NCBI GenBank assembly: GCA_003971905.1
Contig: RSEE01000022.1
Coordinates: 62,001 to 126,000 of the forward strand
DNA length: 64,000 bases
Origin: Moniliella sp. 'wahieum'
Lineage: Eukaryota
Reading direction: 5' to 3'
Positions 1 to 56,440 of the stretch are shown piece after piece; the stretch's first letter is position 1, and each line of letters begins with the position of its first letter. Made by a program: the position numbers and the translations under genes. The notes under the pieces were generated by a model, which searched no databases, was not told the DNA's origin, and saw only the letters and a list, made by a program, of their open reading frames with translations.

Positions 1-14
1 CGTGATGCTACGCG

Positions 15-11715: not shown

Positions 11716-12037
11716 CTTGGGTTGCTAACTGGGCAAAGAAAGGAGGGTCAGTCGCCCACCCACATACAAACGCAAGACCACGAATTTTCAGCCGGCGAGG
11801 GTAAGGCTAACGGGGGCCGTCCCCTGCACCCGCTGAGGAAGCCGACAAGGACTGCGTATGCACTCACCTTGCTGGGCCGGACCGTCGAAGTAGAGTTGCG
11901 CACGGAGTCGAGCCAGGTGGTAGGAGGGCCAGGCGGAGCACCCTGCTGGCGGCCGGGCGGAGGCTGCGAAAAATCCGCCAGCCGCAGCACAGGCCGCCGA
12001 AAACTTCCCCGCTGCCTGTCGACCCGCCAACAAAAGG

Positions 12038-12058
12038 AAGTAGGGTGTAACCCTACTT
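12038..12058. promoter_or_regulatory. Palindromic ACCCTA (Homol-E/telobox-like) element in the RPS5-RPS28 bidirectional promoter
   Basis: AAGTAGGGT-GTA-ACCCTACTT perfect inverted repeat; GTAACCCTA also upstream of RPL13 and RPL18. Confidence 0.6.
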
Positions 12059-12136
12059 GTGCTGTGCGTCCCAGCAATGCGTCCGTCTGCGCGCTGGCCG
12101 TTGATCTGTCTCGTATCCCCCCCACCCACATCCACA

Positions 12137-12401
12137 ATGGAAGCCGTCTCGAAGCAACCCGTCAAGCTGGCCAAGGTCACCAAGGTTCTCGGGCGTACTG
12201 GCTCGCGCGGCGGTGTGATCCAGGTGCGCGTCGAGTTCATGGACGACTCGACCCGCTCCATCATCCGCAACGTCAAGGGCCCTGTCAAGGTGGACGACAT
12301 TCTTGCCCTTCTCGAGTCGGAGCGTGAGGCGCGGTATGTCCTGTGCCAGTCCTGTCCCAGTGGGTGCGTTGTACTGACAAGCGAACAGCCGCCTGCGTTA
12401 A
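12137..12401 (+). CDS. RPS28: 40S ribosomal protein S28 (eS28), intron 12334-12388
   Basis: [62 protein letters not shown]. Confidence 0.97.
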
Positions 12402-13184
12402 GCTGTGTTTGGGTCCTTCCCTCCTGGGCGAAACTCTTGGGGACCACACCCTGCTTTTGGTGTCCGGTCGTGCTCGATCGTTCGCCACCGCCTGGATCCG
12501 AATCCCTTTCCGTACCTGTAGTGCCTTTCGAGACTGCTGGGTTTCCCAAAACGCATCTCGCCTATGGCATTGCATGCTCGCACCCGCATTCCTCTTGTTA
12601 TAGTCCCCAACCCAGGTGGATCATCGCCTTCCTGTATTTGGTCCTGTGGCTAGAACTGCCCTCGAATGCAGCTGAACATGAGACCGCCCGCCTGCCTGTA
12701 AGTCAAGGTATTGCTAGCAGCGAATTCAACGCAGTGCACCACTTTGAGGACACGGGACTACGTGATGCGTCGAGAAGGCCAGACGCGTAGCGCTTCGAAA
12801 GTGGGCACGCCCAGATGCGTTGCAGCTGGACCTGTGAAGTGACGACGAACGCGGCCAGCGGAGATCCGTAAGGGGCCACAGAGCTACTGTTCCGCTTACT
12901 GGCTAGCAACAGGAACATGGACGTTCATGCGTTCATGCCAGCACCAGATCATTAAGATCAATGGCAGTGGCCAGCACGCCAAGCCACTGGAGTACTGATT
13001 AAATACTGACTCCAGTGACCGGCAGGGAGACGCTGTAGACTGGATTGGATTGGCAGTCGAAAACACGGCGGAACCCATGCATTTCCGCTCTTCTTGCTCC
13101 TTGCCATTCCCGTCCTAGAGCGAAGCGACCTGGCTAGTGCTAGTGCGTCTCCACCGCATTGGCCACCTCCTCCACTCTCCAGCC

Positions 13185-13510
13185 ATGGCCACCACGCTGA
13201 GCGAGACGGACCAGAAAGAACTGCAGGGTTTCCTGGAGGCCGAGAAGGCCAAGGCCCGTGTCCAGAGCTCGGTGCACCAGTTCACCGACATGTGCTGGGA
13301 CAAATGTGTCACCTCCATTGGCTCGCGTCTGGGAAAGGAGGCCAGCTGTCTGTCCAACTGCGTTGAGCGTTTCCTCGACTCTTCGCTGTACATTGTATGT
13401 GATGACCGCTATCTACTGTCTGCCCGAACGTTCTCGACTAACTGCTCTCTTTCGCTCCAAAGGTCAAGCAGATTGAAGCCCAACGCGCTCAGGCCGGCTC
13501 ATTCGAGTAA
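13185..13510 (+). CDS. TIM8: Mitochondrial intermembrane-space small Tim chaperone Tim8, intron 13395-13462
   Basis: Twin CX3C motif (CWDKC..CLSNC), ELQGFLEAEKAKARVQSSVHQFTD, VERFLDSS; exon 2 VKQIEAQRAQAGSFE*. Confidence 0.92.
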
Positions 13511-14379
13511 TCTGGCCTTGTTCCTCGACAATCGCATTCTGTACTGCTTCCGCCCGGCACATGCCTCACCTGACTGGGAGATACAGGGGCAACATGCCTC
13601 TTTGAAGATAGACCACCAACTGATTTCTAATCCGCCCCAACCACCACCGCCACTGCGTCCCTGCACTTGGATTCAGGCAGGTTGGGATCTTGGTCCGGTG
13701 GTGTATCTTCGATCGATCAACGAGACGTGGATGGGACTAGGCATATACGGTTTATCCACCCAATCAGAGGGGGGGCGAACGGAGGACTATGGCGTTGATT
13801 TCTTCCTACATTGCTCCTATGGGGAAGGGTCGCCTCCGAAGTGATGTCTCAGGGAGCGTAGCCGCAGCGTTAAGCGCTCATATAAACGAGATAACGTGTC
13901 ACCTGGGGAACTCTCCAAGCTCCAAACTCCTTGAAGCATGGCTCTATCGTTGCAGAGAAACTCCCTTGTCACGCTCGAATCAGTAGAACTTCTGCTGGAC
14001 ATGATGATCATATCTCTTTCACTGCTCATATGATGGAATGCACACATCTTGAGGTACTAGGAGGAACCGCACGGAAGTTCAGAAGTATAGGGTTTCTTTA
14101 CCATGCTAAGCGCAACTTCTATAATCACACTGGCAGTTACTAGGTACTACATTTGTGGGTATACTAGGTAGTGTAGAACTATCTCGAACGGTATTCCACT
14201 CCAATAAACGGTCTAAGTGATGTATGTAGGTGCTGCCAATGAAGGACCGAACCGTATGAGAAGAGATGGCACAGCAAGCAATCAAAGCCCACACCTGACC
14301 ACAAGGACGAGCGTTAGCGTGCTGCTCAAACGCATATATATACGTATGCCGCAAGATAACGGGATGATGGGGAACGAGA

Positions 14380-15533
14380 GTGACGCACAGGGGACCCGCA
14401 GAACCTTGGCTGATTTGCACCTTCACCGTAGCCTTGCCGTCCGGTCCTTTGCCCGTCGCCGTCGTCTCAAATGCCTTGATGGCGTCGTCGAACGAAAACC
14501 GATGCGAGACAATCTTGGAGATGGGCAATTTGCCCGATGCGACCAAGTCGATCGCGGTACGGTACGTGCCTGCTCCGTAGCGGAACGAGCCAGTGACCAC
14601 AACCTCGCGCGCATTAATGTAGCTCAGGGGGATGGTCACATTGTCTACGCCCATGCCGACTTGCACGTAGCGGCCCTTGGGCCGAGCGGCCAGGATGCCC
14701 ATTGCGACGCAGGGGGGTGCCCCGTACACTCGAGCACCAGGTCAAACCCGCTGTTAGCAACTACCTCGGCTCCGCTGGCTGCCACCACAGCCTTGGCGTT
14801 CCTCTGGGCTGCATCAGCCGCCGTCTCGCCCTCGTGCGGGCGCGTGGACTGGTAGGTATGAGTGGCGGCAAACGTCTTGGCAAACGTGAGCTTCTCCTCT
14901 ACAATGTCGACCACGGTCACCACCGATGCGCCCACCCACGTGCCACGCCGGCACATCCCAGTCCAACCGGGCCTGCTCCCAGCACCAGCACATTTTGCAG
15001 GGGCGCCACCTGGCCACGGTTGACTGTGGCGTACATGCTACCGACAGGGGCTCCATCAGGGAAGCCTCTTCGAGTGACATGCGGTCCGGGACCTTGTGGG
15101 CAAAGGAGGCATGGAGGTTGTAGTATGTGGCGAGCGTACCATCGTAGGGCGGAGTGGCAGCAAAGACCATCTTGGGGCATTGGTTGTAGCCGCCCAAACA
15201 TTGCTCGCATTGGAAACAAGGCGTTCCGGGCTCGAGGGCAACACGGTCACCTACCTTGAGTTGGGTCACCTGGGCCCCACGGCGGGTAACGATGCCAGCA
15301 GATTCGTGGCCCAGGACCATGGGCTTTTTCAGGACAAACTCGCCAATGCCCCCGTGCTTCCAATAGTGCACATCGCTCCCGCAGATGCCTGTCTGGCGAA
15401 TGTTGATTTGCACTTGCTCGGGGCCCGGGGGGACAATGGGGCGTTGTTCGAAGCGGAGGTTGTTGACGCTGGCCAAGACCAGGGACTTGTTCCCTGACGC
15501 AGGGGGCACGGCGATGGAGTTGTCGGTGGGCAT
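14380..15533 (-). CDS. Zn-dependent xylitol/sorbitol dehydrogenase (MDR family); frameshifted, 3' end approximate
   Basis: GICGSDVHYW, LGHESAG, VGDRVALEPG, structural Zn cysteines, VLVLGAGPVG Rossmann motif, GSFRYG. Confidence 0.92.
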
Positions 15534-16737
15534 GGCGGGTTGGCCGGATGCAGGGATGGTGCGGTGGACAGACAGACCGAGCACGCAGCCGCAGCGAAGG
15601 CAGGGCTTTTTATAAACGGTCTTGGTCGGTGATGCAGGGGCGATGAAGGATGGAGCGGGACGGTGCTGACAAGCAGCAGAGGGCGCGGGGGCGCGCAGGG
15701 CCCGTGTCATGCCATAGCCTCTCACTCAGCAGCAGCACGAAGCTCTCCAAGCTATCAAACAGAGCTGCTGGGAGGCACCTATGTGCAAGGCCTACGATCG
15801 TATATACCCCTACACATCGCCCATCCACTGGAGAGGGATCCATGCCCACGCCAGAGCCGCAGCCACGCGCGCCCACCGCTGCGCCCCGCACGCCCCGCCT
15901 TTACCCACACTCTCACCCACCGCCCCCGCCTTGAAGCTTGGAGCCCAATCATAAGCTTCCTACAGGAAGCTTGAAGCTCCTCTCCCCTCCATGCACGTCA
16001 CGATGCATGATGTCCTCACTTAGTATGTGTCAACACGTTACCGTCGGCCGAGGCGCTTCTCTCTGATCGTGGAGCTGTGAGAAAAGTTGTGATGTTGCTC
16101 CCAATGCGTGCTTGCCAATGGTCAAGGCCAGGCCCAACTTGAAGCGCATCATGTCTGTTGAGCACGCGACGCTTGCTGGGCCGCAACGCCCCCCATGCCA
16201 CTTATGATGTGGATCAGCCATGCTCATCAACGCCTCGGCTCCCCAGCAGCACGTCACCAGGACGCGTGACATGTGACAGCACTTGGATTCGGACTGGATG
16301 CGGTGAGGCGCGGCTGTGTGTAACCCTACAGGCGAATTGCGGCACGGCGGAAGAAAGCGAGCAGGCCCAAACACTGCGCCTGCGCCACGAGGGTTAGGAA
16401 ATCCCCGGGCTGCTGGCATGCTGCATACTGGGTAGCAACCCTATCCTGCCCCCGCTGCCCGCGCGTAGGTGGCCTATGTGGTTGCCGGAGGGTGCTGGAC
16501 ACCATCAGCCAAGCAAGGTCGCCAGCCAAGTGCGTATGCTGCCCCCCCCCCCTCCCCCCCTTTCCCGCCGCTCCTCAGGGCGGAGCGAGGCTCTTCTATC
16601 GAACGCGCGGTTGCTCGTTGATCTCGGTGCGAGTGGCGAGTCTGCGTGGCGCCGCCGTGCTGTTTCTGCGGGCGTGTTGCGACTGGTGTGGGACGCCAGA
16701 ACGGAAGGCTGACCGTTTTACCTGGGTGTGGTGCAGG

Positions 16738-17358
16738 ATGGGTTTCCGTCACAACAACATCCTTCACAACAACCACTTCCGTAAGGACTGGCAGCGCCGG
16801 GTCAACGTTTGGTTTGACCAGCCCGGCGCCAAGAAGCGCAGGCGCAATGCGCGTGCGGAGAAGGTGGCCCGCTCGGGTCTCAAGCCCGTCGACTCGCTCC
16901 GCCCGGTCGTGCGCTGCCCTACGCTCAAGTACAACCGCAAGCTGCGTGCCGGCCGTGGGTTCACCCTCGAGGAGCTCAAGGCTGCTGGCATTCCCCAAAA
17001 GCTTGCTCGCGTGATTGGTATCGCGGTGGACCACCGCCGCAAGAACCGCTCGGAGGAGGGTCTGCGTCTCAACATTGAGCGCGTCAAGGCGTACCGTGAG
17101 CGTGTGGTTGTCATCCCGGCCAAGGGCAAGGGTGCCAAGCTCGCTGAGCTTGCCTCGGCGCCCAAGGTTGAGAATGTTGCTGCTGCGTTCCCCATCCCTG
17201 CTGGCACGGTCGCCGAGAAGCCCCGCGCGATCACGCAGGAGGAGAAGGACTTTGAGGCGTTCAAGACGCTTTGCCACGCGCGCAACACTCACCGCCAGGC
17301 CGGCTTCCGCGCTGCCCACCAGGCCAAGAAGGAGGCCGAGGAGAAGGCCAAGAAGTAA
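16738..17358 (+). CDS. RPL13: 60S ribosomal protein L13 (eL13)
   Basis: MGFRHNNILHNNHFRKDWQRRV..WFDQPG..LRPVVRCPTLKYN..GRGFTLEELK..VDHRRKN; 5'UTR intron ~16530-16736. Confidence 0.97.
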   Translation: MGFRHNNILHNNHFRKDWQRRVNVWFDQPGAKKRRRNARAEKVARSGLKPVDSLRPVVRCPTLKYNRKLRAGRGFTLEELKAAGIPQKLARVIGIAVDHRRKNRSEEGLRLNIERVKAYRERVVVIPAKGKGAKLAELASAPKVENVAAAFPIPAGTVAEKPRAITQEEKDFEAFKTLCHARNTHRQAGFRAAHQAKKEAEEKAKK

Positions 17359-18554
17359 ATTGCTCCTCTGCAGTTTTTTGGCCGAGGGCAAGGAGGCAGG
17401 AGCGGCAGTGTATTTGTGCGGGCGTTGCTGCTTCTTTGTCTCCTTGCAACAAACAATACGAACACCAAAATTATGGCTTCTGGTCCCCAATGTGGGGCGA
17501 GCTGGCCACACCCGCTCCCTTGCCCGGCGGACTGTCTGTTGGCGGACCGTTTGGGATGGGCTGTGCTCTCGCAGAGCTTGGGGGGTGGGATGAGGGGCTG
17601 AGATATGCGTTGGATTCTATGCTTACAGCCCATGCTGTGCGTAATACCTGGACTGCCTACTACTTAGTCCTTACCGATAGCACATAGATACACCTCGACT
17701 GTCGATTTGTTAAAAGAAAGGGACCTCTGGGGATGCTGATTGGACATGGGAATGGAATGGAATTGGCATTCTTCATTCGATGGGCTGCACGCCACCAGAC
17801 GAGAGAGCTATTTATTCGGCGTCAATGGGAGCGCGCCCAGGGGCAGCAGGGGTAGGGGTGGTGGGAGAGACGCAAAACGGAGAAAGAGTGGGATGGTGAG
17901 AACCGAGAATAGACAACGCGTGAGGCGGCTCGCATGTGCCTCATGGATTCCGAAGGGGATGGCTGGATGGAAGGGCCAACACGGGTCGGGTACATCGGGC
18001 CGCGCAGAGCGTTTCCTTCCGTGTCTCTTCCGCCTGTTCGTGCGGAAGGAGGACGCGCAAAGGGTTATGCATCTGCTCGCCCCACACTGGCGCGGTGCGG
18101 GACCCCCAGCTGCGCAGTGGCAGCCGCAGCGTGGGGACAGCGGGGGCTACACTGACGCGATGCGCGCCCGATTTTTTTCTCGGCTGCTGGGGCACCGCGA
18201 ACGAGGGAAACATGGGCAGAAAAAAAGGACGCCCAGCCCACAGTCTTCCCCACCACCCGTCGCCACCGTCCCCGCCCTTCCCACCACCGTTCTCTCTTCA
18301 CCAGAGCACGCCCTCGAGACGTCTGCCCTGGCTTAGAGCGCAAAAAGAAAAAGTACGTTGCGTGCCGGTTGGTGCCCCGACTGGCCGTGGTCGGTACCGC
18401 GGCCACACACGACGGTTCTTCCTCGCTTGCTCCCGCTCTGCCTTTTGTCGCCGCCACAGGCAGCTAACCTCGCTTTTGCTTTGCCCAGCCCACAAAAAAA
18501 CACAGAAAATCTCTGAAAACCCCCAAGAACCCCCCCGCCACTCACCCTTCCTAA

Positions 18555-20482
<1,928 letters not shown>

Positions 20483-21742
20483 GTGCGTGTTGGCCTTTCG
20501 CTGCCCTTTCCCCCTCGCGTCAAAAGGCAAAAAAATGCACTGGTCTTGCCGTGCAGCAACGATGACACCGACGAGTGCTATGGATCTCGGTTTCTTCTGT
20601 ACCCCCGTTTCCCCGTTTCCGTTTCGCGTGTTTCCCTTTCCTCCTCCTTAACCTTAACCTTAACCCCCTTGCCTTGTCGTCTCCTCGATGTCGATGAGGA
20701 GACGCGTGAGTCTACTGTTCTCCCCGCTCCCCTCTCGCTTGGCGAATGGGAGCGGGGTTGTGACTGTCGCTGGCGATGCCGTATGGATTGGTGGCGATGC
20801 GGCACGCGGTCATGGTATGTTTCGATGCTGGATTTGGTCCGCGGCGTGGATGTGGTTGGACAATGGAACGGCGGTGGCTCTTGCTGGACTACTGGGAGTG
20901 CAGGCCGGGCGGGCGTAGGCAGTGGATAGGCATTGGTATGGGCGCAGCAGGCGGGGGCAGGCGAGTGTGGTTGAGTACTGAGTAGATGGGCAGGGAAAGG
21001 GCCGCGGAGCAGGAAGCGGCGTCGCGGATAGCCGGGGTATAAAACGCCGTTCTCCGACGGAAGTGAACGTTGAACACGGCCCGATCCTCTGATCAATCTG
21101 TGCTCGGTGCACATGGCGCAGTCCAGTGGACGACACTGCCACGGCGCACATGCGCGGGTGTGGTGCTGAGTCTCTACAAGTTCGGGGCTCAGGCTGAGCG
21201 CGTCGCCTAGCGCCTCCGCAGCTGCCGGGGGGGGGGGGGGCTTCTGGCCCTTCTGGCCATCTGAGCCGCCCGCTGTTCACGGTCTTTGGCCGCTGAGAAG
21301 ACTTTGTCCGTCACCGCGTCACCTCTCTCGTTTCCCTAAACAGCCACCTGTCCAGCTGTGGCTGTCCGCGCCCCACACTGCACCGAGCCGCTTCTGCTCC
21401 AGACGCACTGCGAGGCCCGCGCTGAACACCCAACGCATCCCCAGCCTGGAGGACAAGTGTGCGTGCGGGACAGAAGAGCCCGTGTGTTCGAAGCGAGGCG
21501 TCGGATGGGCAGGCTAGGGTTGCGGGGCATAACCGACGGTGCCGCACGAAGGATGCATGATCCATCACCCACCATGCCGATCGTGGGGGGCGCACACTGG
21601 CGCCCTGCGCGGCCCAGCGCTCGTCCCCGCATGGTGCCTGGGCAGTTGTGAGGCTCACATCCAAGCGCAAGCAATCCAACCCACGCGGGCCCACGCGCAT
21701 CCGCGCCGCCGCCATCTCTCCTCGGCCTGCTGTCTGCTTGGC

Positions 21743-23888: not shown

Positions 23889-24299
23889 TCCATGCAAGGG
23901 TCCTTTCGTATCCTCCCTCGACAGCTTCCCCGGTTCATAATATCCTCGAGGAATGGATGAACAACTAGCTACAAAGCATTGTCGGATGGTGCCCCTGCGT
24001 CCAGCGACACTAGCTAAGAGAATAGTTGCACCTTGCACCTCGCCAAACCGTAGCCCACCTTGAGGTGTGTTTTTATGTCTTTGTGCATCAAGAGTAATCC
24101 GAATCGGTAGTGCTGGCATGCGTGCGGCTTTGGGCTATGGTTCCCGTCGAAAGGGGGAAAGGAGATGGGAACCAAATACGAGAAAAGGGAAATGAGACCA
24201 TGGCTCGACTGGGGGGTGGTGGGGGGGGGCGGCAAAAACCAAGGTTACAACAACGCAAATGAAGCGAAGCTGCCAAATCGGAAGAAACAAAAAAAGACG

Positions 24300-24371
24300 T
24301 GGACGAACAGGGAATTGAACCCCGGACCTCATGCATGCTAAGCAAGCGCTCTACCCCTGAGCTATCCGCCC
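24300..24371 (-). tRNA. tRNA-Ala(AGC)
   Basis: GGGCGGATAGCTCAGGGGTAGAGCGCTTGCTTAGCATGCATGAGGTCCGGGGTTCAATTCCCTGTTCGTCCA; oligo-T Pol III terminator follows. Confidence 0.95.
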
Positions 24372-29637: not shown

Positions 29638-31325
29638 ATGTCTGTTCTGCTAGAGACCTCTCTGGGGGACCTTGTGGTGCGTACGATGACGTTTCCCGGC
29701 GAGTCGATTACGTGCTTTGTGCTGACCTGCTGCTCTGCCTCTCCTTCCCAGATTGACCTCGACACCGAGACGTGCCCCGTGGCCTGCACCAACTTTCTCA
29801 AGCTCGCCAAGGTGTACCAGTACACCCACAATGTCTTCTTTTCGGTCCAGCGTGACTTTTTGGCGCAAACGGGCGACCCCACAGGCACAGGGAAAGGCGG
29901 CAGCAGCATCTGGTCCCAGCTGCCTGCGTCGTCACGAGACAAGACTGCTTCGGCGCTCTTTGCCCCCGAATCGTCCGGTTTGAAGCACGATGCAGTTGGG
30001 GTGGTCTCGATGGCGTGTGTACCCGGCCCCGACGGCACTCGCCTGGCCGGGTCCCAGTTCTTCATCACGCTCGGCACAGACTCGAGCTATTTGGATGAGA
30101 AGCATGCACCGTTTGGAGTGGTGGTGGAAGGCGCCGAACCGGAGGGTACGTTGAGCAAGATCAACCGCGTGTTTGTGGACAAGGAGATGCGGCCATTGCA
30201 GGATGTGGTGATTCGGCATGTCGAAGTACTTGGTACGTTTTGCATGGTGACGTGCTCTTTTTCATGAAAGTGGCTAACCTGCCCCCCCCTTCAGACGATC
30301 CGTTTGACGATCCCGACGGCCTCGTCGTACCTTCACGTCCGCCCACTCCGGTTGGGGAGCCAGGCCCGATCCGGCTGGGCGCCGACGAGGATTTGGATGA
30401 TGCGCGTACGGCCGAGGAGAAGGAGTTGGCGCAGCGTGCGTCGGATGCAAAGGCAGCCGCGTTGACGTTGGAAATTGTGGGGGACTTGCCGTTTGCCGAG
30501 GTGCGGCCGCCAGAAAACATCTTGTTTGTCTGCAAGCTCAACCCTGTCACACGCGGCGAAGACTTGGAGCTGCTGTTCAGTCGGTTTGGCGCAATCCGCA
30601 GTTGTGAGGTGATCCGGGATGCCAAGACGGGCGATAGCCTGCAGTATGCGTTCATCGAGTTTGACCAACGCGACGCTGCCGAGACGGCGTACCTCAAGAT
30701 GCAGAATGTGCTGATTGACGACCGACGGATTTGGGTCGACTTTTCCCAGTCGGTTTCCGGGCTGCACGACCGTTGGCTTCAAGGCCGCCGAAGGCGTGCG
30801 GGCGCCAATGCCGAGCTGCGTGTGGTCGGGGGCCGTGGCGGAGCCGGGAGCAGAGGTGGAAGCGGGAGCGGCAGCCGAGGCGGGGGACACCGTTCCCACT
30901 CACCACCTCGGCGTGAACACCGCGACCGAAGTCGCAGTCCGCCCCCTCGTCGGAGACACGACGAACGGAGGTCGGGGTCGGGGCACTACGACGACCGTCG
31001 GCGGCCAGACGAGCGGCGCGAGTACCGTGACTCGCATGGCAGCAGCCATGACGAAGCCCGTTCTTCGCGATCCCGTGACGAAGCCCGTCCTTCGCGATCC
31101 CGTGACGAAGCCCGTCCTTCGCGATCCGGGGCTCCGAGGAAAGGCATCGGTCCAGCCGATCACGCCATGCCGAGGAGGACGACCGTCGCCATCGCTCCTC
31201 GCGCGGACGGAAGAGGAGCGCGGAGGCACCGCGAGCATCGCCCTCGCTCGGGGCAGGAAAGGGACGAGCGGACCGGGGGAGAGGCGCGCTCCTCAGACCG
31301 CCGCGATGCACGTGATGATCGATGA
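29638..31325 (+). CDS. PPIL4: Peptidyl-prolyl isomerase-like 4 (cyclophilin + RRM + RS/RD tail; PPIL4/Rct1 family), introns 29677-29751 and 30233-30294
   Basis: [84 protein letters not shown]. Confidence 0.95.
31050..31128 (+). repeat. 27-nt coding tandem repeat x3 (DEAR(P/S)SRSR)
   Basis: GACGAAGCCCGT(T/C)CTTCGCGATCC(CGT) three times in the PPIL4 tail. Confidence 0.85.
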
Positions 31326-32232
31326 GCGGGGTTAGGTGTAGCAGTACTCACCGTTGCCTGTCGCATGTGCACGTGTGTTCGGGTGTGCTGGGCCAAAACA
31401 CCAAGAGGACTGGGGATGTGGGGATGGATCGGCGGTTGTGATTGATGAGTGCATTGATGGATGTGCGCCCTCGTCGACACGCGACGGGGCAGCAGGAGAC
31501 AGACGAGGCGGTTGGGAGAGGCAATGGGCGGATGGGGGGATGGACGAGGTCAGGTGTGCTTGCGTCACATGTCACATCACAAGTGATGTCACAGTGTGAC
31601 TAGTGCTAGTGACTAGACACGAGACACCAGAGTCACTTGCGTATAACCCTTTGCTTGAAGCCTGAAGCTTGGAGCTAAGGGTGTCCCAAGCTAGGCCTGC
31701 CCCCACACAGGAGGACACAGAAGAGCAGAGGGTACAATGGGGCACTCGGACACCGCAGCGCCCAATGCGGGCTGCATGGGGGGGCTGCTGCCATCTCAGG
31801 CAGCACGGGAGCGCCAGACGCAACGCAAAGCACCGGCACGCACGCTGCCTGTGTGTGACATGTGATGCAGCCGCGCCTGGCTGCCAGGGTGCCGGGGCGC
31901 CGTGGGCATGGGGGCAGTGGGATGTGACGGGTGGCGTGGCGCGGGCTGCGCGGCGGCTGCAGCGCGGGCAGCGCTGCAAGGGGCTGGCAGGGGCCGGACG
32001 CAGGACATGCAGGGGCAGGACGCAGCAGCGCAGCGCTGGCGCCACGCGCGGCGTGTACACTGGCGCTGTGCCGGTGGGGCGCGGATAAGCTTCGACGAAT
32101 AGCAGCAGCCGCTCGGCCGGTTGTGAGGGCTGCAGCCCCGACAGCACGCCGGTGCGCTCGCTGGCGGGGATGCGCATCCAGCGCATCCGCATGGCCGTCG
32201 CGAGGTCGAGCACGGTGGAGGTGGTCGGTGGG

Positions 32233-32313
32233 CGATGGCGATGGCGATGGCGATGGCGATGGCGATGGCGATGGCGATGGTGATGGTGATGGTGATGGTG
32301 ATGGCGATGGCGA
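32233..32313. repeat. Compound hexamer microsatellite (GGCGAT)n(GGTGAT)n
   Basis: About 13 tandem units. Confidence 0.92.
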
Positions 32314-32833
32314 TACAAATGAATGACATGAATGGAATGGAAATGATGATCCCCATGGCCTTGTTGGATGACAATGTCGATGACCCTCCAGACTCACACC
32401 GAGTGGCGCCCACAGCCCAAAAAAGCCGCATCTGCCTTCTCCCCACCACTCTCTTCTGTGTGGGCGTGCAGCTGCCCGTCTCTGTCCTCCACTCGCCTCT
32501 GCGTTGCGGGCATGCTCGCTGCCGTTGCCGCCACCCCCCTCGCCCCACGCCGACGGCCTGCTCCCTCCGTCGTCGCCCCCTCCGCCAGCACCAGCTCCGA
32601 CTCCCGTCCCTCCTCTCCCTCTCCCACACCCGCGTCGACGCCACCCTCCCTCGACCGTCTCCGCCGTCCCTCGGCCGACGGCGAGCGGCCCTGGGCGCCC
32701 CCGTCACCATCTCCTCCCACTCTCGCGACCGCACCAGCTGGACTGCCGCCGCCGCCGCGCTTGGCGAGCGCCCGCCCGATGGCGCCTCGCAGAATTCCAT
32801 CAGCCACAAGCTCAATTCCTTCGTTCGGGCCAG

Positions 32834-46438: not shown

Positions 46439-49341
46439 ATGCCCGCCTCCCCGCCCGCCGCCCAGACGCTCGCCGCCCTCGCCGCGCTCGCCCCCGCCCT
46501 CAGCACGCCTACGGCTACTTTCCCCCCCGCCCCACCGCCGCCGTCCTCCCGCTCGACCCGCGCCCGCGAGCAGGTGGTCGCCATCTGCGCCGCCGCATCC
46601 GCCGCACGGGCTGGCCACTCCCTTCCTCTTCTCCTCCTCGCGCTCGACCAGAGTGCATCTGGGTGCCAAGCCCTGCCATGCCTACCTCGGCCTGCCCAAC
46701 CGCATCCGTGGTGGATGGCCTCCACCCATCCTCACCGCAGCCCGCACCGTCCGCCTTGGCCCGCGAGGCCAGCTATGCCAGCCCCAGCGATCTGGCGCCA
46801 TGATCAAATGGGCCTCGCACACCTCGTCCGTCCAACCACCTCCCCGCCACGGGCTGCTGGACATGGACCAGTACGTGCGTGGCGTGCTGACGAGAAGCGT
46901 ATGTACCCTCTTGTGTGTGCCCCCACCCAACTCGCTGCCACGCCCTCCGGCCCAATGAGAGATCCGCCGGGGAAAGGAAGAGGAGCCAGTAGGAGAGGCC
47001 CGTACTAACCCTCCTCCGCATCTTCCACCACCGTCTCTGTTGTCCCACAGGCACGGGGTATCCGCCCAGTGCGTTTTGTTCATTCCAAGAGGCGCTTGAG
47101 CCGAGCGAGAGGACGTGCTCGGCACCCTCTTTCGCTCCTCTCGTCCGTCATGGCGTATGCCCGCCAAACAGGCACAACGCCCTCCCGTCTCGCTCGCCTT
47201 CTTGGTCCGCTCCTGTTTGGGCTGCCTTGCAACGACACGTTCCCGCGCACCTACGACGCCTATGTGGCCAGCAGCAACGCCACCGAGCACCTCCTCCTTG
47301 CGTACCTACGTCACCTCGCCACCGAAACCGCTCTGCCCATCCGACTCGCCGAGCTGGTCCAACGCTATCCGCAGTGCCTTGCGCCCGATCCGTGCCAGCT
47401 ACCCACCACATGCGCTTGGAGCCCGTGACGATCATCGAACGCAACGTCAAGGTCTACAGCCCGGACCTGATCCTCACCGCGGCCGACATGGACGTGCCCG
47501 CACCGGAGTGGAGGGCGTGCCAGCTGCCTCCGCCGATGGAGGGCAAGCCAACCGTGTCGGAGCTGCAGCGCAAGTTGCTCAACCTGCCCTCTGCACCCGC
47601 GTGCGCTCGCTAGCCAGATCAGTCCGGAACGTCATAATACCACCTGGGGCCAATTTGCGTCGTTGGGGTTTGCCGATCCCGACCCGCAGTACCTCACCCT
47701 GGCTTCTGCGTATCCGTTTCCCAAAACCCCGGCGCCTCTGCCTCTGCCCCACCCTCCGGTCGCTCGGCCGCACACAATGCTCTGGTCCGACTTTGCTTCG
47801 GGCGGGTTTGACAATGGCACGCTCGCTCCGCTCCGTCTGTCACTGGATGCCGCCCAGTCGGCGCCGATCCCACCTGCCGCAACCGAGCAAACCGAGGCGA
47901 ACGATCGGTGGGACAAGCTGGTAGACCAGCTGCCTGCGATCGACCAAGACGTCTCGCCCGTCGCCCGGACCGGCGTAGCCGCAACGATGGACCCCACCAG
48001 TCCAATCGACTGGGCCAAGTACAGTAAGTTTGACCCGCTCTTTGCCGAAGTGTGGGCAGACTATCTGATGGTGATGGGCCGGGAACCCACCCGCCACTCC
48101 TCCACCGTCCAGCCAATTGGATTGTGGTCCAGTACCGCTCCCGTCCGCCTCGGCCCACGTTTGCTCTCCCGCCCAAGTGCGAGCCGGGCCCGGTCCCCCC
48201 GACCCCGACCCCGACCCACGCACGGCCACCGCATGGTTTGTCATTTCGGAAACGGTGCCACTCGCCTACCGCGCCTTGCTCCAGCCCCCGAGACCTCCCA
48301 TCCGCTCTGCTGCGCCCGCTTGCGCTGTTTCGCCGCCCGCGGCGGGACCCGGGCGCGCGCGGCCCGCTGCCCTCGTCCAAAGCACTCACAGTCTTGTGCC
48401 TTCCCACCCCCACCCCCAAGCCCAAGCTCAACCCCACGCTCAACCCCCAAGCCCAAGCCCATCTACCTCCCCCTCCCCCGCTGCCGGTGTCAACAGTCGC
48501 ATGGGCACAGCCAAAGTCATGCACGCCTTGCTGGGCCGCCACCGGCTCGGATTGCACAAGGATCCTCGCCTGCACGCTCGGGCGGGACCGAACGATTGCA
48601 CTAGTCCCTCCCCCCCCAGCCTGCCCGCGACCGAGCTCGGACGAGAAAACGGAGCATGGGAAAACGGCGCGTCGGACTGGGCTCGACGGAGGGACTGGTG
48701 TCGGGCCAGAATAACCACAGACAACCCCGGGGCGGGCGTGGCGATGCGGCGGCTGGCGTGCCGGCGCCCGTGCCGGCGCCCGTTTCTTGGTGGCCCAAAA
48801 GCGCCGTGCTCGTGCGTCCAGCTTCGATTCAGTTCCGTTTGACGTGGCGAGCGTGTTGCTCGACGCGACGGAGAGACGTGGGTCGAAGTGCGACGCATGT
48901 TTTCTGCGGACCATCAGATCGGCCCGCCCGCGCCTCGGAGCCGAACGTTGTCGTTGGATGCGGCTGCACCAGTTTTCTTCCCTCGGGCTGGACCGGCCGC
49001 TCCTCCCCGCGCAATCGGGGGTAGGTTTGTCTTCTTCCTCTTCCTCGCTGGGAGAAAGAGAGGAAAAGAAACCGCTACCCATACCCATACCCATACTCTT
49101 CGCAGCATGCCACGGCTACCAGCGCGTCGCTTGTCCCGCCTTCGTCCGAGACGGTGCACCACACCGGGCCGGCAAGCGGGTCCAACGGCGCTCGTCGTCG
49201 TTCCGCTCCAGCCGACCGCCGTCGTCAGACACGCTGACTGCCCGCGCTCCTGGTTCCCTCTTACCGCCTTCCATCCCCTCCGACAACGCCCCTTCCAGTC
49301 CAGGGTCCCCGTGCCTGTCCATCCTCAGGACTAACATGTAA
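46439..49341 (+). CDS. Msb1/Mug8 (DUF1708)-like protein with long disordered C-terminus; frameshifted
   Basis: TPSRLARLLGPLLFGL..TYDAYVASSNATEHLLLAYLRHL..LPIRLAELVQRYP resembles the Msb1/Mug8 domain (recalled similarity, not searched); intron ~46899-47050. Confidence 0.55.
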
Positions 49342-50057
49342 CACACGAGAAATCCGGGGGTTCGTCCCGTTGGGTTGTGTCACCGTGCCATGCCTTCATT
49401 GCCATCATCGATCATCGATCATCTCTCTCTCGCCCTAGGATCTAAGATTTGATCCACTGGTTTCCCTTTAGCGAGCCTTCATCGATTCATCATATTCATC
49501 TACCGCCCGCACCGCATCTTCTTTCCTGTGTCTTACCTTGTACCATTCTGGGGGCTCTCTCACGATCCCATCGCACCACTTCTCTCGGACCTCCGATCTC
49601 CGATCTCAGTTCTCAACTCTCAACATTCAGCCCCCCAAAAGATCTCTGATACATCATGTACATGTCCCATACCCCCGTTTCCTCCATCTGGGTCCTCTCC
49701 TTTGCACCATATGTCCCTTTTTTGTACGACAGAAGACCATCACCATCGTCCTCTCTTTCCTCCCTTTCCCTTCCTTCCCGTTTGTTCCTAGGACTCTGGA
49801 AAAATCTGTTCATACAAACATTCAACTTGAATTCACAGGAGTGGGCAGGACTAGTGGCTATACCCTTCAGCGCCTCACGCCTCAGGCTCAGCCCCCCCAC
49901 CTCCCACTTGATCTCCCTTTCAATAAAAGAGCGGCGGCTTATTTGCCAGCTGCAGATTATGTGGTAAGCGTGCCACCGCCACGTTCCAGGCCGGCGCAGC
50001 CAGGCCGATGCACATGGGTGATAAAATTCGCCCCTCCAGCGTGGAACGGTGGACCGG

Positions 50058-50148
50058 TGGAACGGTGGCTAAGGTGGCGACGCAGCACCAACACCAAGCT
50101 GGGGCGAAGCCCCAGCTGACCGGGCCGTAGGCCCGGTGGTCTTCTAGT
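50058..50148 (+). mobile_element. Helitron-like 3' terminus: two GNA-loop hairpins then CTAG|T
   Basis: AGCTGGGGC-GAA-GCCCCAGCT (50097-50117), ACCGGGCC-GTA-GGCCCGGT (50119-50137), CTAG 50144-50147 followed by T; second copy near 190-280. Confidence 0.6.
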
Positions 50149-53100
50149 TGTTATAGTATAAACGAACGTTGAACGATGGCCCCTTGCTCTCGCCCCACTG
50201 AGCTAGGATGGGACCACGTTTGTCTCGCCACTATAGTATAGGTGTTACATGGTACCGGGTACGTGGTGCCCCTGCCCTCCACTGTCCTTTGGGGGCGCGT
50301 ACGACGTACGCCTCGATGGAGAAGCATTTGGTATTCAGTCCTTACCATAGTTGCTGTGGGTAGACCCACCGCAGAGAAGTTATGCTTTCTGCTGCTCCCT
50401 CCTCACCGTTCTGTCCCTACTATTACCATGTGCTTATGCACCATGTGCACAAGCGTGCAGAAGCAGCATTCTTGGCCTCAGCCTGAGCCTGAGCGCTCCG
50501 CCGTATAATCCTCACACAGGCCTCAGGGGCGTGGCCCTATTCTCTCCTCCGTTACGCGTTACGTGGTACGCGGTACGGGTTGCACGTTACATGGTATGCT
50601 ACCCACATCAACAGAAAAGCTTTCCATGCTGTTCCACGACCCTATTCCTATGTACCCACCGCTCGCTCGCTCGCATGTCATTTTGTCTTCCTGGGTATAT
50701 CCGACGTTGGAGTGTTGACCCGTGTTTGGAGGCTAAAAAGTGCCAAGCGAAGACTTGCACTCTACCCAGTTTTGCCGCCGTGGGTATCGCGTCACGCGTC
50801 AAACGTCATGCGTCACGCGTCAAGGGGCACGATTTCTTCAAAATGGGGCTCTCGGAACCTTAAAACGATGGAGACTTCAAAGCGGGCATATATTAGTTTT
50901 TCCTAGATTCGCTTTGTTTGGTTTCCCTCCTCTCAGATCTCGGATCTCACGTCTCATATTTCGGAGGTGAGGCCTGAGGCCTGAGGGCCTGAGGGCGTGA
51001 GATCTGAGATCTCATCAATCTCATCCATCGATCCTCTCGATCATCTCGATCGTACCTGTGGTAGGACTGCCTAGCGAATCGCGCCCTCCTGAGGTCTCAG
51101 GTCTCAGGGCTTCCCATTGCAATTCTTCTCTTCTGTTGATCTCCCAAAGAGACCTGGAGTCCTGATGGTCCTGGGGGGAGATGCGATCGGACCAGTTGTA
51201 GTGGATAGCAGTGCAGGACTAAGCCATCGAGCAACACCGCTAAAGGGACATCATGCATCAAGCCGCCAGCCCCGCCGTCAAGGAAAATCGGAAAACAACG
51301 GAACTTCCTAGAGGATGCTCCACCCTCGATGAGAAAGAATGAGGTTAATGAGGCTTGAGGCTCAAGTTGAGCCCTGAGGGGGTCTGAGGGCTAAGGTGGG
51401 AGAAGGACCTGGTATTAGCCAAACACAACATGGAGTTGCGCGTTGGGTCAACTTGCAACTCCCCTCCTTCTCCCAGTTTCTTCTCCCACGGCCTCATCTT
51501 CGATCATCATGCATTGCACGACGCCTCCCCCCCCCATTTGTGGTGCCCCCAAATGTCACAAGTCATTCACCCTTTATCCATTATAATGGGGACCTCAGAC
51601 GCTCCGGCCTCGCCGTCTCACTGGCTCACCCCTCAGGCCAGGGTCACCTGCAGTCCCTCCTCCATATATGAAGTCATATTTGGTACGTTAGTATGTAGGG
51701 GATCAGTTCTCAACAGATATTGGTCCTGTAGTTCAATCGGAAGGTCAGGTGGACATGCCAAATACATAATGCATAACAAATACACACAGGCAAAGGCCCA
51801 ATGGGCCTCTGGATCTTTCCCTTTTTTCTTGCTCACAATCCGCCTCTGTGGCGGACAAAGTGCGTTGTCGCGATACAAGCCTTTGAGAATCGCGGTATCG
51901 GCGGTAAGCAACAGTAACTGTCATAGTTTGACTGATCTCGCTCCTATTTCCAATTTCTTCTCTCGTCTCGAGCGTCTCGCTCCTTCCCTGTTTCTTCCAC
52001 TTCGCGCCATATCCTCTGTTCTTGCTTCTTCCCCACGAACGATTGCTACACTCCTTGCCTAGTTCGACTCTGGTCTCGCTCGCCTTAGCCCCGACTGTGA
52101 CAGTAACTAATAGGAACTGGTAACTGGTAACTATAATATTGACCGCGGAAACCGCTAGCCGCTCCTAAACCGACCCGTTCTTCTTGCGTCGCTTAAGGAA
52201 CCAGGGAAATCGCCAGCAAATCAGCAGGACCCTCTGGTGCTCGCCATCTGTTCCCATACCCGAGGAAGCGTGTGTGGATACGAACGAACGTGGTAGACAC
52301 ATTTTTGGGCGGTGAACCATCTCCATTGAGAGTCAGTTGGTAGACCCTTCCTGTGCCCAGCATCTTGCCCGTTGTCTTGGTGGCATATATCCTTATTGCG
52401 TCGTCCAAACGAAGGGGAACAACGGTTTTTGAGTGCATCCCTGGAACTTGGCATTCTTGTCGCATTCTGCTTGTTCCAGCAGCCGAAACAGCTCCTTTTC
52501 CCTCATTCCAAAAGCGTCGCGGTGCTCTCATGTACCACCCTCTACAGTATAACCGACGGATCCGTAGAAACGCGCCGTTTTCGTGCTTTTCTGTCCACGT
52601 GCATGTCGTCTGTCTCACATCCCACATCTCAATATCAAGGCCAACGTTCAACTGTTTGCAAAAACAAGCTTCATAGTGATCGTCGGGATGAGTCGATGAG
52701 GGGAGAGAGAAGCTGTACACATGATGCGCTGATGAAGGATGTTAGATGAATAGAGCTTGTTACTGCACTTACTGAACCTTGAAGTTGAGTTTGAGGGTGG
52801 TAGCAACAGAGAGATCAAGCTTCAAGCGTCAAGAAGAATTGAGAATGTGTCCTGAGTACACTGAGTACGTATATGGCACTTACACAACATTCTGTGCGAA
52901 AACAACGGCGGAGAGACGAGGGACTGCGTGGTTAGCCAAAAAACGAAACGAGATAATAATGCGACAGACCACTGTGACATGTGATCTCGGTAGCTCGGTG
53001 AAGCTTGAAAAGCTTGAAGCTATGAAGCGAGGAAGCTTATAATGCTTGTAGTAGCTTTTGAAGCTTACCATGCAAACGTAACGCGTAACGCGGACCACGT

Positions 53101-54669
53101 GAAGCAGAATGCGTAAAGCTTGAAATTCTGTCCAGACTCTCCCACAGGCTCTGGAGTGACTAGCTTGAAGCTTGTGACTAGGGACGAGTGATTACTGAAC
53201 CTTTCCGCGTCAGATGAAGACTCAACGCCTCAGCCCGAATTTTTCAGTGCCAAGTACACTCAGATCTCAGAAGAGGAGCGCAGGCGCCAATCGCAAGCAT
53301 TTGCCAGCGGCTATAGGCCGTCGGCGACCAGCGATCCCGATTTCCTCCCACAGGAGCTGGCGGAATACTGGCGGGGTAGCCCGGCAGGAAGTTGGTACAT
53401 AGTCCCTGGCCAGCACTAAAAGCGCTAAACGCGTTTGTTACATGTTTGTAGCGCTAAGCGCTAAGCGCTTATATTATAGGCCACACAAGCCAAGTGCTAA
53501 GCCGTCTTCGCGTGTGTTTCACGGGAGTAGACGACTTTTACCCGCAGCCTCCACCTAGCACCTACCACGCTGCCAGACCCTGCCCCACACCACCTCGTTT
53601 GTTTGTTGGTTTCTCGTTGCTAGTTACTATTAGTTACTAGTACTAGTTGAAGGCTGTGGTGGTTAGTGGTTCCTGCGACAAATGCATGTGAGACATGTGA
53701 TCTGAGATCTGACATGTGACCGGTGACCGGTGACCTCGTTCTGACGTCCACGAGTGGGTGCCATGCCCCAGGCACTCCGCGGGGCAGACCGGGTGACCAA
53801 TCACAGTGCCCCCTGGCTATGGAAGCAGATCTCAGATCTCGGATCGCAGATGTCCCATGCCACATGTCACATCTAGATCTCAGACTGAGTTCTCACATGT
53901 CCGACGATACATAGGAGGCGGGAATTTGAAATGTAACATGCAGAACATGTAACGTACGTAACGAGCATCATATAATCTTGTGAATGTGAAAGTTCCAGTT
54001 GAACGTTGGACGTTGGACGTTGACCACGTTGTCCTGTGACATGTGACCGATGAGATCGATGACTAGATTGGTGATCAAACAGTGTGCCTGAGGGATCTGA
54101 GACGTATTAGGCGTCGCGTCAGGGCCTCCGAAAGGAGATTGCCATGTTTCACCTGCAACTTCAAGCCTCAAGGTTAGCTTCCCTCTTCAAGCTCCAAGCT
54201 AGCTTCAAGCTTCAAGCTAAGCTTCATTGTTTTCATCCTATCACCTGTTTACTAATGCACTAATGCCTCTTCTATAGAGATCCTCACATGCTCACAGTCA
54301 GGTTTCGCGCAAGCATAGAGCTTCCCATGGTGCAGCGGATATTAACGTACCGAGGAGCAACCCGGCCATGTTGAGCCACATCGAATGAGACGCGTGTTTT
54401 GGCCAATGTCCCTTCAGAGTAGTTTCAGCCCCCTTCTCTTCTTGGGCTGAGGCGCTGAGGCCGCCTCAAGCCTATGGGAGTTCCGTTGTTTTCTCGCTTC
54501 TGTTTTCCTTGTTCCGCAGCCTCCTGGACCTTCTCTCTGCCACGTGGCTCGACGCCGCGCGCGTTGAACAGGCCTCCCCTTCTTTCTTCGGCCTGCAGCT
54601 TTCCCAGAAGGCTAGCGAGTGTCCGTGCAGCGGTTCTCCTAATGCCATTTCCATTGCCTACTGCAGCCT

Positions 54670-55385
54670 GTAACATGTAACACATGTAACACACAGAGAA
54701 CATAATGAAAACGGGCCGGATGATCGAGATCTCGATCGATGACCGATCAATTATTATAAGTGTCGATTATCTCGATTCAGCACTTGAAGCTTATGGCGCT
54801 TGGCTTTTTTAACCTTGCCCTTTTCTTGAAGTTTGAAGAAGCCTTAGACAATCAATCTTAGACCTTCGACCTAACATTAGGCCTTAGGCCTACCTTAGGC
54901 CTACCTTAGGCCTAAGCCTTAGGCCTTATTGGGGTTAGCGCGGTTAGTTCGAGGCTTAATGCCCTTAAGGCCTTAAGCCTTAAGGCCGGCCTTAGAGGTT
55001 GGTACGTTGAGCTTTGAAATTGAGTACGAGTAGTACGTTGAAGCTTGAAGCTAGCTTGAAGCTTGAAGTTGAACATGTTGAACGTTGAACGTTGACCGGT
55101 GACCGGTACATTGACCGTTGACTGAAAGCCGGATGTTCCTCCCCTTACGCCGACTTGACCTGTGGGACTATGTTACCGCCCTGGTAAAGGCGGCGTTACG
55201 CGTTACGCTTCGACGTTAGGCCTTAGGGCCTTAGGCCTTAGGCTCCTTAAATGTCTTAAAGCTTAAGGTTCTAAAGATGTGACATGTGACATGTGACATG
55301 CGACATGGTTAGGGAACCTGCGACCTGTGACTAGTGACTCGTGCATGTGACATGCGACGCGTGACGCGTCAAGGTCTTAAGATCT
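54670..55385. repeat. Densest cluster of TNA-palindrome-TNA micro-arrays
   Basis: TTA-GGCC, TGA-AGCT, TGA-ACGT, TGA-CCGG, TTA-CGCG, TGA-CATG, TGA-CTAG and TGA-CGCG arrays in succession. Confidence 0.88.
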
Positions 55386-55518
55386 AACAAGCAATGCGAC
55401 TGATCTGTACGATCTAAACAAAGCTATACCACCTAACGTCTACGTGCAAAAGGCGCTTAGGTCTACATACATCCAGACACCCTCGACCTTGCCCGCGGCC
55501 TGCCCCCCGCTCCCATGT

Positions 55519-55590
55519 CCACCGTCCAACGGCCACCGTCCACCGTCCACCGTCCACCGTCCACCGTCCACCGTCCACCGTCCACGGTGG
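55519..55590. repeat. Heptamer tandem repeat (CCACCGT)n
   Basis: About 7 consecutive copies, ending in an inverted unit ACGGTGG. Confidence 0.9.
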
Positions 55591-56440
55591 CGGGTATGGT
55601 CAAGGAGGGTCCAAATAACCCTACAGCGCCAGCGCTGCATATATTTTTAGCATCCGTTTTAACGCTCGATTGAAAACGTTGCCCCACACGGCCACAGAAA
55701 ATACGCACTGGAGCAGATATATCCAGGCACCTTTGCCCTGCCCCTGCTGCCTGTCTCTTCTATACAATGGCCACGGGGCATTCGGATTGGTTGGTATATG
55801 ACACGTTGGCATTTCTGCTCAACGTACGCTCAGCGCTCAACTTGAGCGTTCAACGTCAACGTCAACGTCGTTCAACGTTCACAACATACAAGTACGAATC
55901 GTCGATCACCGACAACGTTTTTCAGGGAGCCCTGTTGCACAGCAGAACCGCAGCGAGCAAAGCAAGCGGCGAACACACATGCCATGGGCATGGCATCGTC
56001 CCCGCCGCAAGAGACGCACATATGTTTTTCCCTTGTCTCCAGTCGTTTGCATCATGCATCATGCGCATCATGCATCCAGTATAATATCACACCACCCACC
56101 TCATCTCCGAGGCACTGTCGGAAAACCCTTAAAACGGGGCTCACCTACTCGGTACTTTCTCTTCTTGCCCCTTCTCCCACTCCCATATAGGGGGTCTCTT
56201 CAACATCCCACCCCTTCATCGAGCACATCCCCCTTCAATAACGTTCAACCTTTTGTGATCGCACCCGCCTCATCACTCCCCTGCATCCTCCCCGCCGCTT
56301 CTTTTTTCCCTGCTTCCTTTCACCACCGCCTTTCGCGGATGCTCATCTCGATAAACGACGGCAGACCATACCACGCCCCAGTTGGATTGTGAAGACTCGA
56401 TTGCTGCCCCCACCTTATTGACTGCGTCTCAACGGCTGAC

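Follow-up and report, generated by a model that had tools for sequence, protein, structure and literature searches.

Why does the intergenic DNA of a fungus carry short arrays in which the trinucleotide TNA alternates with a 4-nt palindromic core (TNA-XYY'X'-TNA), and what process would have written them? We addressed this question in a 64,000-nt stretch of Moniliella sp. 'wahieum' (contig RSEE01000022.1, positions 62,001 to 126,000), here called the window, in which a sequence-only reading had drawn attention to positions 54670 to 55385. The arrays were found where they had been placed: this segment held 24 junctions, with 36.5% of its bases covered, of the types TAA-CATG, TTA-GGCC, TGA-AGCT, TGA-ACGT, TGA-CCGG, TTA-CGCG, TGA-CATG, TGA-CTAG, and TGA-CGCG-TCA. 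The arrays probably represent footprints that built up through repeated excision of a cut-and-paste DNA transposon, which is itself absent from the window. All counts refer to the 64-kb window only, and third-order Markov simulations (n = 100) and the 15 other XNY frames served as controls.

Palindromic cores in the TNA frame

A palindromic core was present in 95 of the 188 TNA-N4-TNA sites. The simulations gave a mean of 4.15 palindromic sites (maximum, 13) and 60 nonpalindromic ones, and in the 15 other frames 2.3 to 8.2% of the cores were palindromic. These counts confirm that the arrays are real and lie far beyond chance, and the effect is specific to the TNA frame. Fourteen of the 16 possible 4-nt palindromes were used as cores, AATT and ATAT being absent; all 13 cores listed in the sequence-only reading occurred, together with TATA. 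The length of the spacer between TNAs peaked at 4 nt, and arrays of two to four exact units were present. Exact period-7 runs of at least 14 nt numbered 64; an odd-palindromic rotation existed in 34, of which 32 were counted as TNA centred. The TGTAA strings in the window were the TAA-CATG arrays themselves.

The central base N was identical on both sides of the core in 80 of the 95 palindromic joints, which fits the requirement of a target site duplication (TSD), and 10 of the 15 differing pairs were complementary, which fits a deeper opening of a hairpin (see below). Among the joints with the same N, TGA/TCA centres (61) outnumbered TTA/TAA centres (19). TCA and TTA forms were both present on the same strand.

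Origin of the cores from flanking bases

A repeated TNA plus XYY'X' unit can be read as an even palindrome (A-XYY'X'-T) or as an odd palindrome (Y'X'-TNA-XY). In chains of three TNAs with two unlike cores, both cores were palindromic in seven cases, only the TNA-centred 7-mer was palindromic in none, and four more chains resembled point mutants. Thus, the 4-nt palindrome is an insert that separates two TNA copies. A model in which a 7-bp palindromic target is simply duplicated was ruled out by this test (7 versus 0) and by array lengths of 5 + 7n.

The core depended on the flanks. The outer dinucleotide equalled the near half of the adjacent core in 62 of the 76 maximal chains, against approximately 12% by chance, so that a relation previously traced by hand in a few arrays held for most of them. 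Both sides matched in 16 chains, the left side only in 26, the right side only in 20, and neither in 14. On the matching flanks, the match mostly ended at 2 to 3 nt (left, 31 of 42; right, 26 of 36), and 4-nt matches were in excess where the adjacent TNA had decayed. The 12-mer abTNA-b'a'-abTNA or its mirror occurred 95 times, compared with 0.25 in the simulations; the other frames each gave 12 or fewer. The suggestion that a 3-bp TNA duplication with retained terminal bases of an element could underlie the arrays is rejected, since the 14 cores follow the local flank and not a fixed terminus.

One rule for spacers of several lengths

For an original site abTNAcd, we formulated a single rule, according to which the spacer between two TNAs of the same N is a prefix of cd+d'c' joined to a suffix of b'a'+ab; permuted flanks and the 15 other frames were used as controls. 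The rule explained 82 of the 133 4-nt spacers (13.6 with permuted flanks), 13 of the 46 5-nt spacers (0.78), 7 of the 60 6-nt spacers (0.1), none of the 18 7-nt spacers (0.02), and 1 of the 33 8-nt spacers (0.02). Applied to the other frames, it explained 0 to 4% of the spacers at 5 nt and 0 to 3% at 6 nt. Shorter spacers behaved differently: 7 of 22 were explained at 2 nt (3.8 with permuted flanks), no better than the controls, and 16 of 54 at 3 nt, no better than the other frames, and neither class was counted as evidence.

Where 2 nt of the flank had been copied directly, the adjoining 2 nt were the reverse complement in 70 of 184 instances for the TNA frame versus 226 of 4,370 for the other frames. 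When longer reverse-complement tracts were allowed, three further joints of the TTA-GGCC array were explained (at 54884, 54895, and 54906, with 4 to 6 palindromic [P] nucleotides), and 4 of 68 spacers of 8 and 10 nt were then accounted for versus 4 of 2,859 in the other frames.

Among the explained 4-nt spacers with the same N, exactly one of the two self-complementary halves (overhangs in the model below) was kept in 24 plus 15 exclusive cases and 10 partly ambiguous ones; 23 lay at symmetric sites, where all decompositions coincide, and plain direct 7-bp duplications amounted to 5 exclusive and 5 ambiguous cases. One-sided P-type joints (39 exclusive plus 10) were therefore more numerous than plain direct duplications (5 plus 5), and some joints contained two complete 7-bp copies with 2 P nucleotides between them. 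As read from the sequence, the rule is the grammar of a hairpin or P-nucleotide joint between two copies of a putative 7-bp TSD, nnTNAnn. A 5-bp offset TSD with 2 P nucleotides was also considered and ruled out, because the 5-, 6-, and 8-nt joints retain both cd and ab.

Distribution of the joints

The 126 recognisable joints of the window were clustered at 1 to 700, 8 to 9.7 kb, and 49 to 56 kb (densities are given in Table 1). None of them overlapped Pfam-matched coding sequence, which comprises 5,995 nt and 197 of the 2,058 TNA sites and in which 11.8 joints would be expected under a uniform distribution. The arrays showed graded decay by point mutation. Between 52.8 and 55.45 kb, identity at lag 7 was 0.377 versus approximately 0.24 at neighbouring lags, which suggests that much of this spacer consists of eroded arrays.

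A model of insertion and hairpin excision

In the scheme that we favour, integration would proceed through a 7-bp staggered cut centred on T-N-A, converting the target abTNAcd into abTNAcd[element]abTNAcd. On excision, each flank end would be sealed as a blunt hairpin, and opening of the hairpin approximately 2 nt from its tip would leave overhangs that are 4 nt long and self-complementary, the left flank carrying cd+d'c' and the right flank b'a'+ab. End joining would mostly retain one overhang whole and lose the other, that side forfeiting two terminal TSD bases, so that the product would be abTNA-cdd'c'-TNAcd or abTNA-b'a'ab-TNAcd, with a net gain of 7 bp. Less often, both overhangs would be retained, partly or fully, yielding spacers of 5, 6, or 8 nt, and deeper hairpin opening would produce TNA-core-TN'A palindromes. 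The grammar, its dependence on the flanks, its TNA specificity, and its absence from coding sequence are read directly from the DNA, whereas the element's existence, its insertion, the hairpin with its opening at 2 nt, and the joining pathway are what we infer from the joints. The string TNATNA, which loss of both overhangs would leave under the model, was found at 87 sites, with no clear excess judged.

Every footprint would double the local TNA targets and leave a 7-mer of perfect symmetry. Where a site is symmetric (cd = b'a'), the overhangs are complementary, so that each further cycle would add one exact unit. Target doubling, exact-unit cycles, and some slippage might together make single joints grow into arrays and joints cluster, after which point mutation would erode the arrays into 7-periodic spacer DNA.

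A cut-and-paste element with a target of approximately 7 bp, nnTNAnn, and hairpin excision had already been proposed in the sequence-only reading. That part of the proposal is strengthened by the flank-tracking cores, the 5-, 6-, and 8-nt spacers, and the two-copy joints, while its link to the hAT superfamily is weakened by the even-centred palindromes and by a target unlike the hAT consensus. In another form of the model, which is possible but clearly more doubtful, the footprints would be the work of a hairpin-forming transposase of an undescribed type, which would make a 7-bp staggered cut at a T-N-A dyad and seal the flank as a blunt hairpin in the manner of RAG/Transib, not with the hAT geometry. 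Such an enzyme, perhaps retained by the host (domesticated), would be 'farming' its own targets, and its footprints would propagate themselves as tandem arrays that in time account for a third of some spacers.

Observations weighing against the model

Several results weigh against the transposon model, the most direct being those of the search for the element. No pair of terminal inverted repeats (TIRs) bounded by a 7-bp nnTNAnn repeat was found in the window at thresholds of at least 12/14 and at least 9/10; ten simulations at the looser threshold gave 0 to 1, and the stricter scan had no control. A scan for TNA with 15/16 TIRs gave one match in the window, which consisted of two arrays, so that neither kind of TIR element foreseen in the sequence-only reading was recovered. 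The window contained no dispersed repeats of the transposable-element type, the repeat search giving simple repeats and two array-to-array inverted pairs only. No transposase family was matched by any of the 187 open reading frames (ORFs) of at least 140 amino acids in the window or of the 113 ORFs of 60 to 139 amino acids in the hot zones, in agreement with the earlier remark that no transposase is visible.

The joints themselves supply further points. Among the 4-nt spacers with the same N, 51 of 133 had no explanation, approximately 20 of which are estimated to be chance co-occurrences, and the 14 of 76 chains that fitted neither flank are likewise unaccounted for. In the chain at 53703, which has three unlike cores, the middle core is not derivable from one original site in the simplest model. 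The model also offers no tested explanation for the dominance of exactly one kept overhang. The copying of a non-TNA unit (ACGT-TGG) implies that slippage, unequal exchange, or another duplication also acts on the arrays. Finally, the even-centred palindromes and the positions of T and A misfit canonical hAT elements.

Comparison with known systems

The joints have the features of the general class of flank-hairpin footprints, namely, two TSD copies, short deletions, and TSD-templated P nucleotides. V(D)J coding joints arise from a blunt flank hairpin and show even-centred P nucleotides, typically of approximately 2 nt, with variable trimming of both ends; Artemis prefers to open hairpins 2 nt from the tip. 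The even-centred P nucleotides found here resemble those of V(D)J, RAG, and Transib joints and would, judging from the sequence, likewise come from a blunt flank hairpin. Unlike RAG and Transib, which have a 5-bp TSD, the joints that keep cd and ab show a 7-bp duplication, and they lie in a fungal genome and not in an immune locus. No sequence resembling a recombination signal sequence or Transib, and no such protein, was found in the window.

The hAT superfamily is characterised by an 8-bp TSD, although subgroups with 5, 6, or 7 bp exist, by the target consensus nTnnnnAn, and by a transposase with a BED finger, a DDE core, and a hAT dimerisation domain. The target found here, with T as the third and A as the fifth of its 7 bases, differs from that consensus, and none of these transposase domains was matched by the 300 ORFs scanned in the window. 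A hAT-type odd-centred hairpin with an 8-bp TSD did not fit the majority class of joints, in which N is unchanged. Membership in hAT is thus not supported by the sequence, and by analogy the process would work like hAT or V(D)J footprint formation.

PIF/Harbinger elements have TNA, or TWA, as their 3-bp TSD, and excision of mPing/Pong is mostly precise. The central T-N-A in a symmetric target is shared with them, whereas the duplication here is of 7 bp and not 3 bp (direct copies reach 2 nt on each side), TSA centres exceed TWA centres, and the process appears to form footprints. The window contained neither a Harbinger transposase nor a Myb-like partner.

Flank hairpins of hAT, Transib, RAG, and MULE elements are described as being opened by host enzymes and joined with footprints (passages of PMC5499845). 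For Ac/Ds, a hAT element, passages of PMC5873905 describe P nucleotides in footprints in plants and three fungi, as well as hairpin cleavage by the Artemis-related Pso2 in yeast. As in our arrays, both TSD copies are largely kept in Ac/Ds footprints (plants, S. cerevisiae, and Candida albicans), but their palindromes are odd, with the complement of the element-adjacent base at their centre (same passages of PMC5873905), while those found here are even centred (cd|d'c') at the end of the putative TSD. Ac/Ds also differs in having a TSD of 8 bp versus the inferred 7 bp, and the footprints found here are iterated into arrays.

Within hAT, a 7-bp TSD would fit only the hAT7 subgroup of rust fungi. 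Passages of PMC12730594 name hAT7 (rusts, Pucciniomycotina) and Kyakuja (Agaricomycotina) as DNA transposons of Basidiomycota with a 7-bp TSD; Kyakuja has CA..TG ends, no TIRs, and a KDZ transposase. Both resemble our case in host phylum and in the TSD length inferred here. Those passages of PMC12730594 report neither of them from Ustilaginomycotina and contain neither a TSD consensus nor footprints, and no element or transposase of either kind and no KDZ domain was found in the window. A passage of PMC4455052 gives an example of hAT families annotated in Repbase with a '7-bp TSD'. The idea that spacers can be built through transposon visits has been put forward for ribosomal DNA (rDNA), where short direct repeats would be left by insertion and imprecise excision (PMC10319768). 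Short direct repeats of rDNA spacers are the basis of that proposal, while the present case offers a statistically testable joint grammar in ordinary intergenic DNA. The literature that we searched yielded no description of the TNA joint grammar.

Alternative explanations

The closest competitor, which we nevertheless regard as improbable, is a PIF/Harbinger-like element or another nuclease making a 3-bp TNA duplication, with the additional bases supplied by templated repair (polymerase-theta-like copying or snap-back from the flanks). Such an origin would agree with the TNA motif of PIF/Harbinger TSDs and with the 3-bp length given for canonical Harbinger elements in PMC12730594; two TNA copies would also provide microhomology for priming, and the inserted bases are all copies or reverse complements of the nearest flank bases. 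However, a direct copy longer than 2 nt ahead of the reverse complement is not needed to account for the explained joints. This is what a fixed 7-bp stagger predicts, whereas templated repair should give variable lengths. The distribution of copy lengths is enriched at 2 to 4 nt, without a sharp peak at 2. The excess of TGA/TCA over TTA/TAA centres and the lack of Harbinger proteins in the window also speak against it. Slightly less probable still is an origin without any transposon, in which replication slippage and quasi-palindrome template switching would make and expand hairpin-capable heptamers. Exact arrays of two to four units, the repeated non-TNA unit ACGT-TGG, and nonpalindromic period-7 repeats such as (CCACCGT)x7.6 are what slippage would leave, and (TGACATG)3 occurs in at least 120 metagenome stretches of varied DNA, so that this heptamer can act as an ordinary microsatellite. 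Slippage may indeed extend existing arrays. Against its having created them, most chains have a single core containing 2 new bases that slippage cannot derive from nonrepeated DNA, plain direct 7-bp duplications are a minority, and the effect is restricted to the TNA frame; template switching at TNA would, by our reasoning, find no microhomology for its return step. Single strands of the arrays have only weak predicted folds (-5 to -6.7 kcal/mol; z, -0.9 to -1.7), and none is predicted for the longest heptamer array. In the at least 120 unrelated metagenome loci with (TGACATG)3 (492 kb), other cores (18 of 756) and 5- to 6-nt joints (7 of 886) were at background, and the multicore grammar was not found; these loci are ordinary microsatellites that serve as a negative control and yielded no relatives.

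Two further possibilities seem very unlikely, each to a similar degree. Selected functional motifs, such as binding sites of a dimeric factor, terminators, or three-frame stop arrays, would suit the position of arrays next to gene ends and the fact that TGA or TAA at a period of 7 provides stops in all three frames. The 14 cores are each set by the neighbouring bases, which leaves no common motif beyond T-N-A; moreover, TCA and TTA forms lie on the same strand and point mutations erode the arrays. In low-complexity DNA of this kind, an assembly or sequencing artefact might be feared, but no known error mode produces a flank-dependent grammar with several joint classes in one trinucleotide frame and outside coding sequence, and the graded decay of the arrays argues in the same direction.

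Individual arrays and genomic context

The arrays, their joints, and the other features of the window are listed in Table 1. The joint ct-TGA-CTAGCT-TGA-ct (526) corresponds to two overhangs with a 2-nt overlap. The AGCT arrays at 54185-54215 and 55038-55068 form an inverted pair of 31-nt copies with 97% complementarity, lie 822 nt apart, and both contain the rare AGCTAGCT double joint. The pair brackets most of the left half of the segment at 54670-55385, and no TSD flanks it; it could have arisen by inverted duplication or inter-array conversion instead of independently. At 54003-54022, the array (ACGT-TGG)x3 has TGG and not TNA as its centre, with TGA units on its flanks; it seems to have arisen by the copying of a mutated unit. 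The longest heptamer array of the window, (CCACCGT)x7.6 at 55533-55585, is nonpalindromic, has no predicted single-strand fold, and directly adjoins footprint arrays. Among the metagenome loci mentioned above, four (L020, L043, L045, and L116) carry (TGACATG)n variants, for example tg-TGA-CACATG-TGA-ca and tg-TCA-CATGCATG-TCA-ca, that also fit the rule of TSD plus P nucleotides; they are too few to be separated from microsatellite variation.

The DNA of the window is eukaryotic, with introns and approximately 61% G+C. The ribosomal protein S5 encoded in it shares 91% identity with its counterpart in Tilletiaria anomala and 83 to 85% with those of other Ustilaginomycotina, and a fungal Zn2Cys6 domain lies at 57.36 kb; these sequences suggest that the host is a basidiomycete belonging to the smut/Exobasidiomycetes alliance (Ustilaginomycotina). 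Translation-related genes are tightly clustered at 10000-20500. Between 49300 and 57300, approximately 7 kb at 50 to 53% G+C contains no Pfam-supported gene, a long noncoding stretch for an otherwise compact-looking fungal genome; half of the joints lie in it, and the ATG-started ORFs of at least 110 amino acids in it resemble chance frames. A 27-bp tandem repeat (x2.9, 98% matches; 31049-31127) and (GGCGAT)x14 (32231-32314) lie in or near open frames and are unrelated to the TNA grammar.

Table 1. Arrays, joint densities, and genes in the 64-kb window
Position	Strand	Feature
1-700		22 joints; 31% of bases
343-369		TTA-ACGT x3 array, ending TTA-AC; core from right flank
463-566		Run of joints: TGA-ACGCG-TGA, TAA-AACGT-TAA, TAA-ACACGT-TAA, TGA-AGCT x2, TGA-CTAGCT-TGA, TGA-CTAG x2, TGA-TTAA-TGA
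7886-7910		Period-9 array ga-TGA-CATGGA-TGA-ca (joint at 7894); each unit a full 7-bp putative TSD copy plus 2 P nucleotides
10-49 kb		Gene-rich part; 19 joints; 0.7% of bases
11.1 kb	-	Ribosomal protein S5
12.0 kb	+	Ribosomal protein S28
13.1 kb	+	Tim10
16.3 kb	+	Ribosomal protein L13
18.5-20.5 kb	+	Poly(A)-binding protein
24299-24371	-	tRNA-Ala (AGC), single gene
49000-56100		Hot zone of lower G+C, without Pfam-supported gene; 65 of the 126 joints; 11% of bases
53699-53735		Mixed chain tc-TGA-GATC-TGA-CATG-TGA-CCGG-TGA-CCGG-TGA-cc; outer cores fit flanks
54669-54694		tg-TAA-CATG-TAA-CACATG-TAA-ca, one 4-nt and one 6-nt joint, the latter (tg-TAA-CACATG-TAA-ca, 54678) with 2 putative TSD bases plus a 4-nt palindrome
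54877-54930		TTA/GGCC array, unit CCTTAGG; joints with 4 to 6 P nucleotides: GGCCTACC x2, GGCCTAAGCC x1
54965-54997		TTA-AGGCC-TTA-AGCC-TTA-AGGCCGGCC-TTA; 5-nt and 4-nt joints and a 12-nt palindrome
55038-55068		TGA-AGCT array with the sole joint keeping both 4-nt palindromes, ct-TGA-AGCTAGCT-TGA-ag (55046)
55077-55107		TGA-ACGT x2 adjoining TGA-CCGG; two unlike palindromic cores with common TGA, each fitting its outer flank
55193-55243		TTA-CGCG and TTA-GGCC / TTA-GGGCC joints
55255-55268		ct-TAA-AGCT-TAA-gg, single joint; core from left flank
55277-55300		TGA-CATG x3 array
55326-55373		tg-TGA-CTAG-TGA-ct joint; TGA-CGCG-TCA, a 10-nt perfect palindrome of the complementary-N class
62.8 kb	-	L18

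Biological meaning of the arrays

Excision footprints of the hairpin kind are known as such; new here would be their 7-bp duplication centred on TNA and their iteration, which gives arrays forming much of the spacer DNA. The pattern points to a very active, or recently very active, element whose target is unusual in that 7 bp are duplicated on a TNA dyad, and we found no such element described in this fungal group. If the transposon model holds, more than 120 hairpin or P-nucleotide joints would be readable in 64 kb; such joints are normally gathered singly in excision assays, and the whole genome could provide a large natural sample of hairpin opening and joining, with its 2-nt offset, its one kept overhang, and its rare deeper openings.

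Transposon visits, and not transposon copies, would then be a concrete way to build spacer DNA and to seed heptamer repeats. Arrays of this kind would escape repeat annotation aimed at copies of elements and may pass for microsatellites or regulatory motifs. Should the more doubtful form, with a transposase of an undescribed type, prove true, tandem repeats would be seen to arise in a new way, and the arrays would preserve a natural archive of hairpin-repair outcomes.

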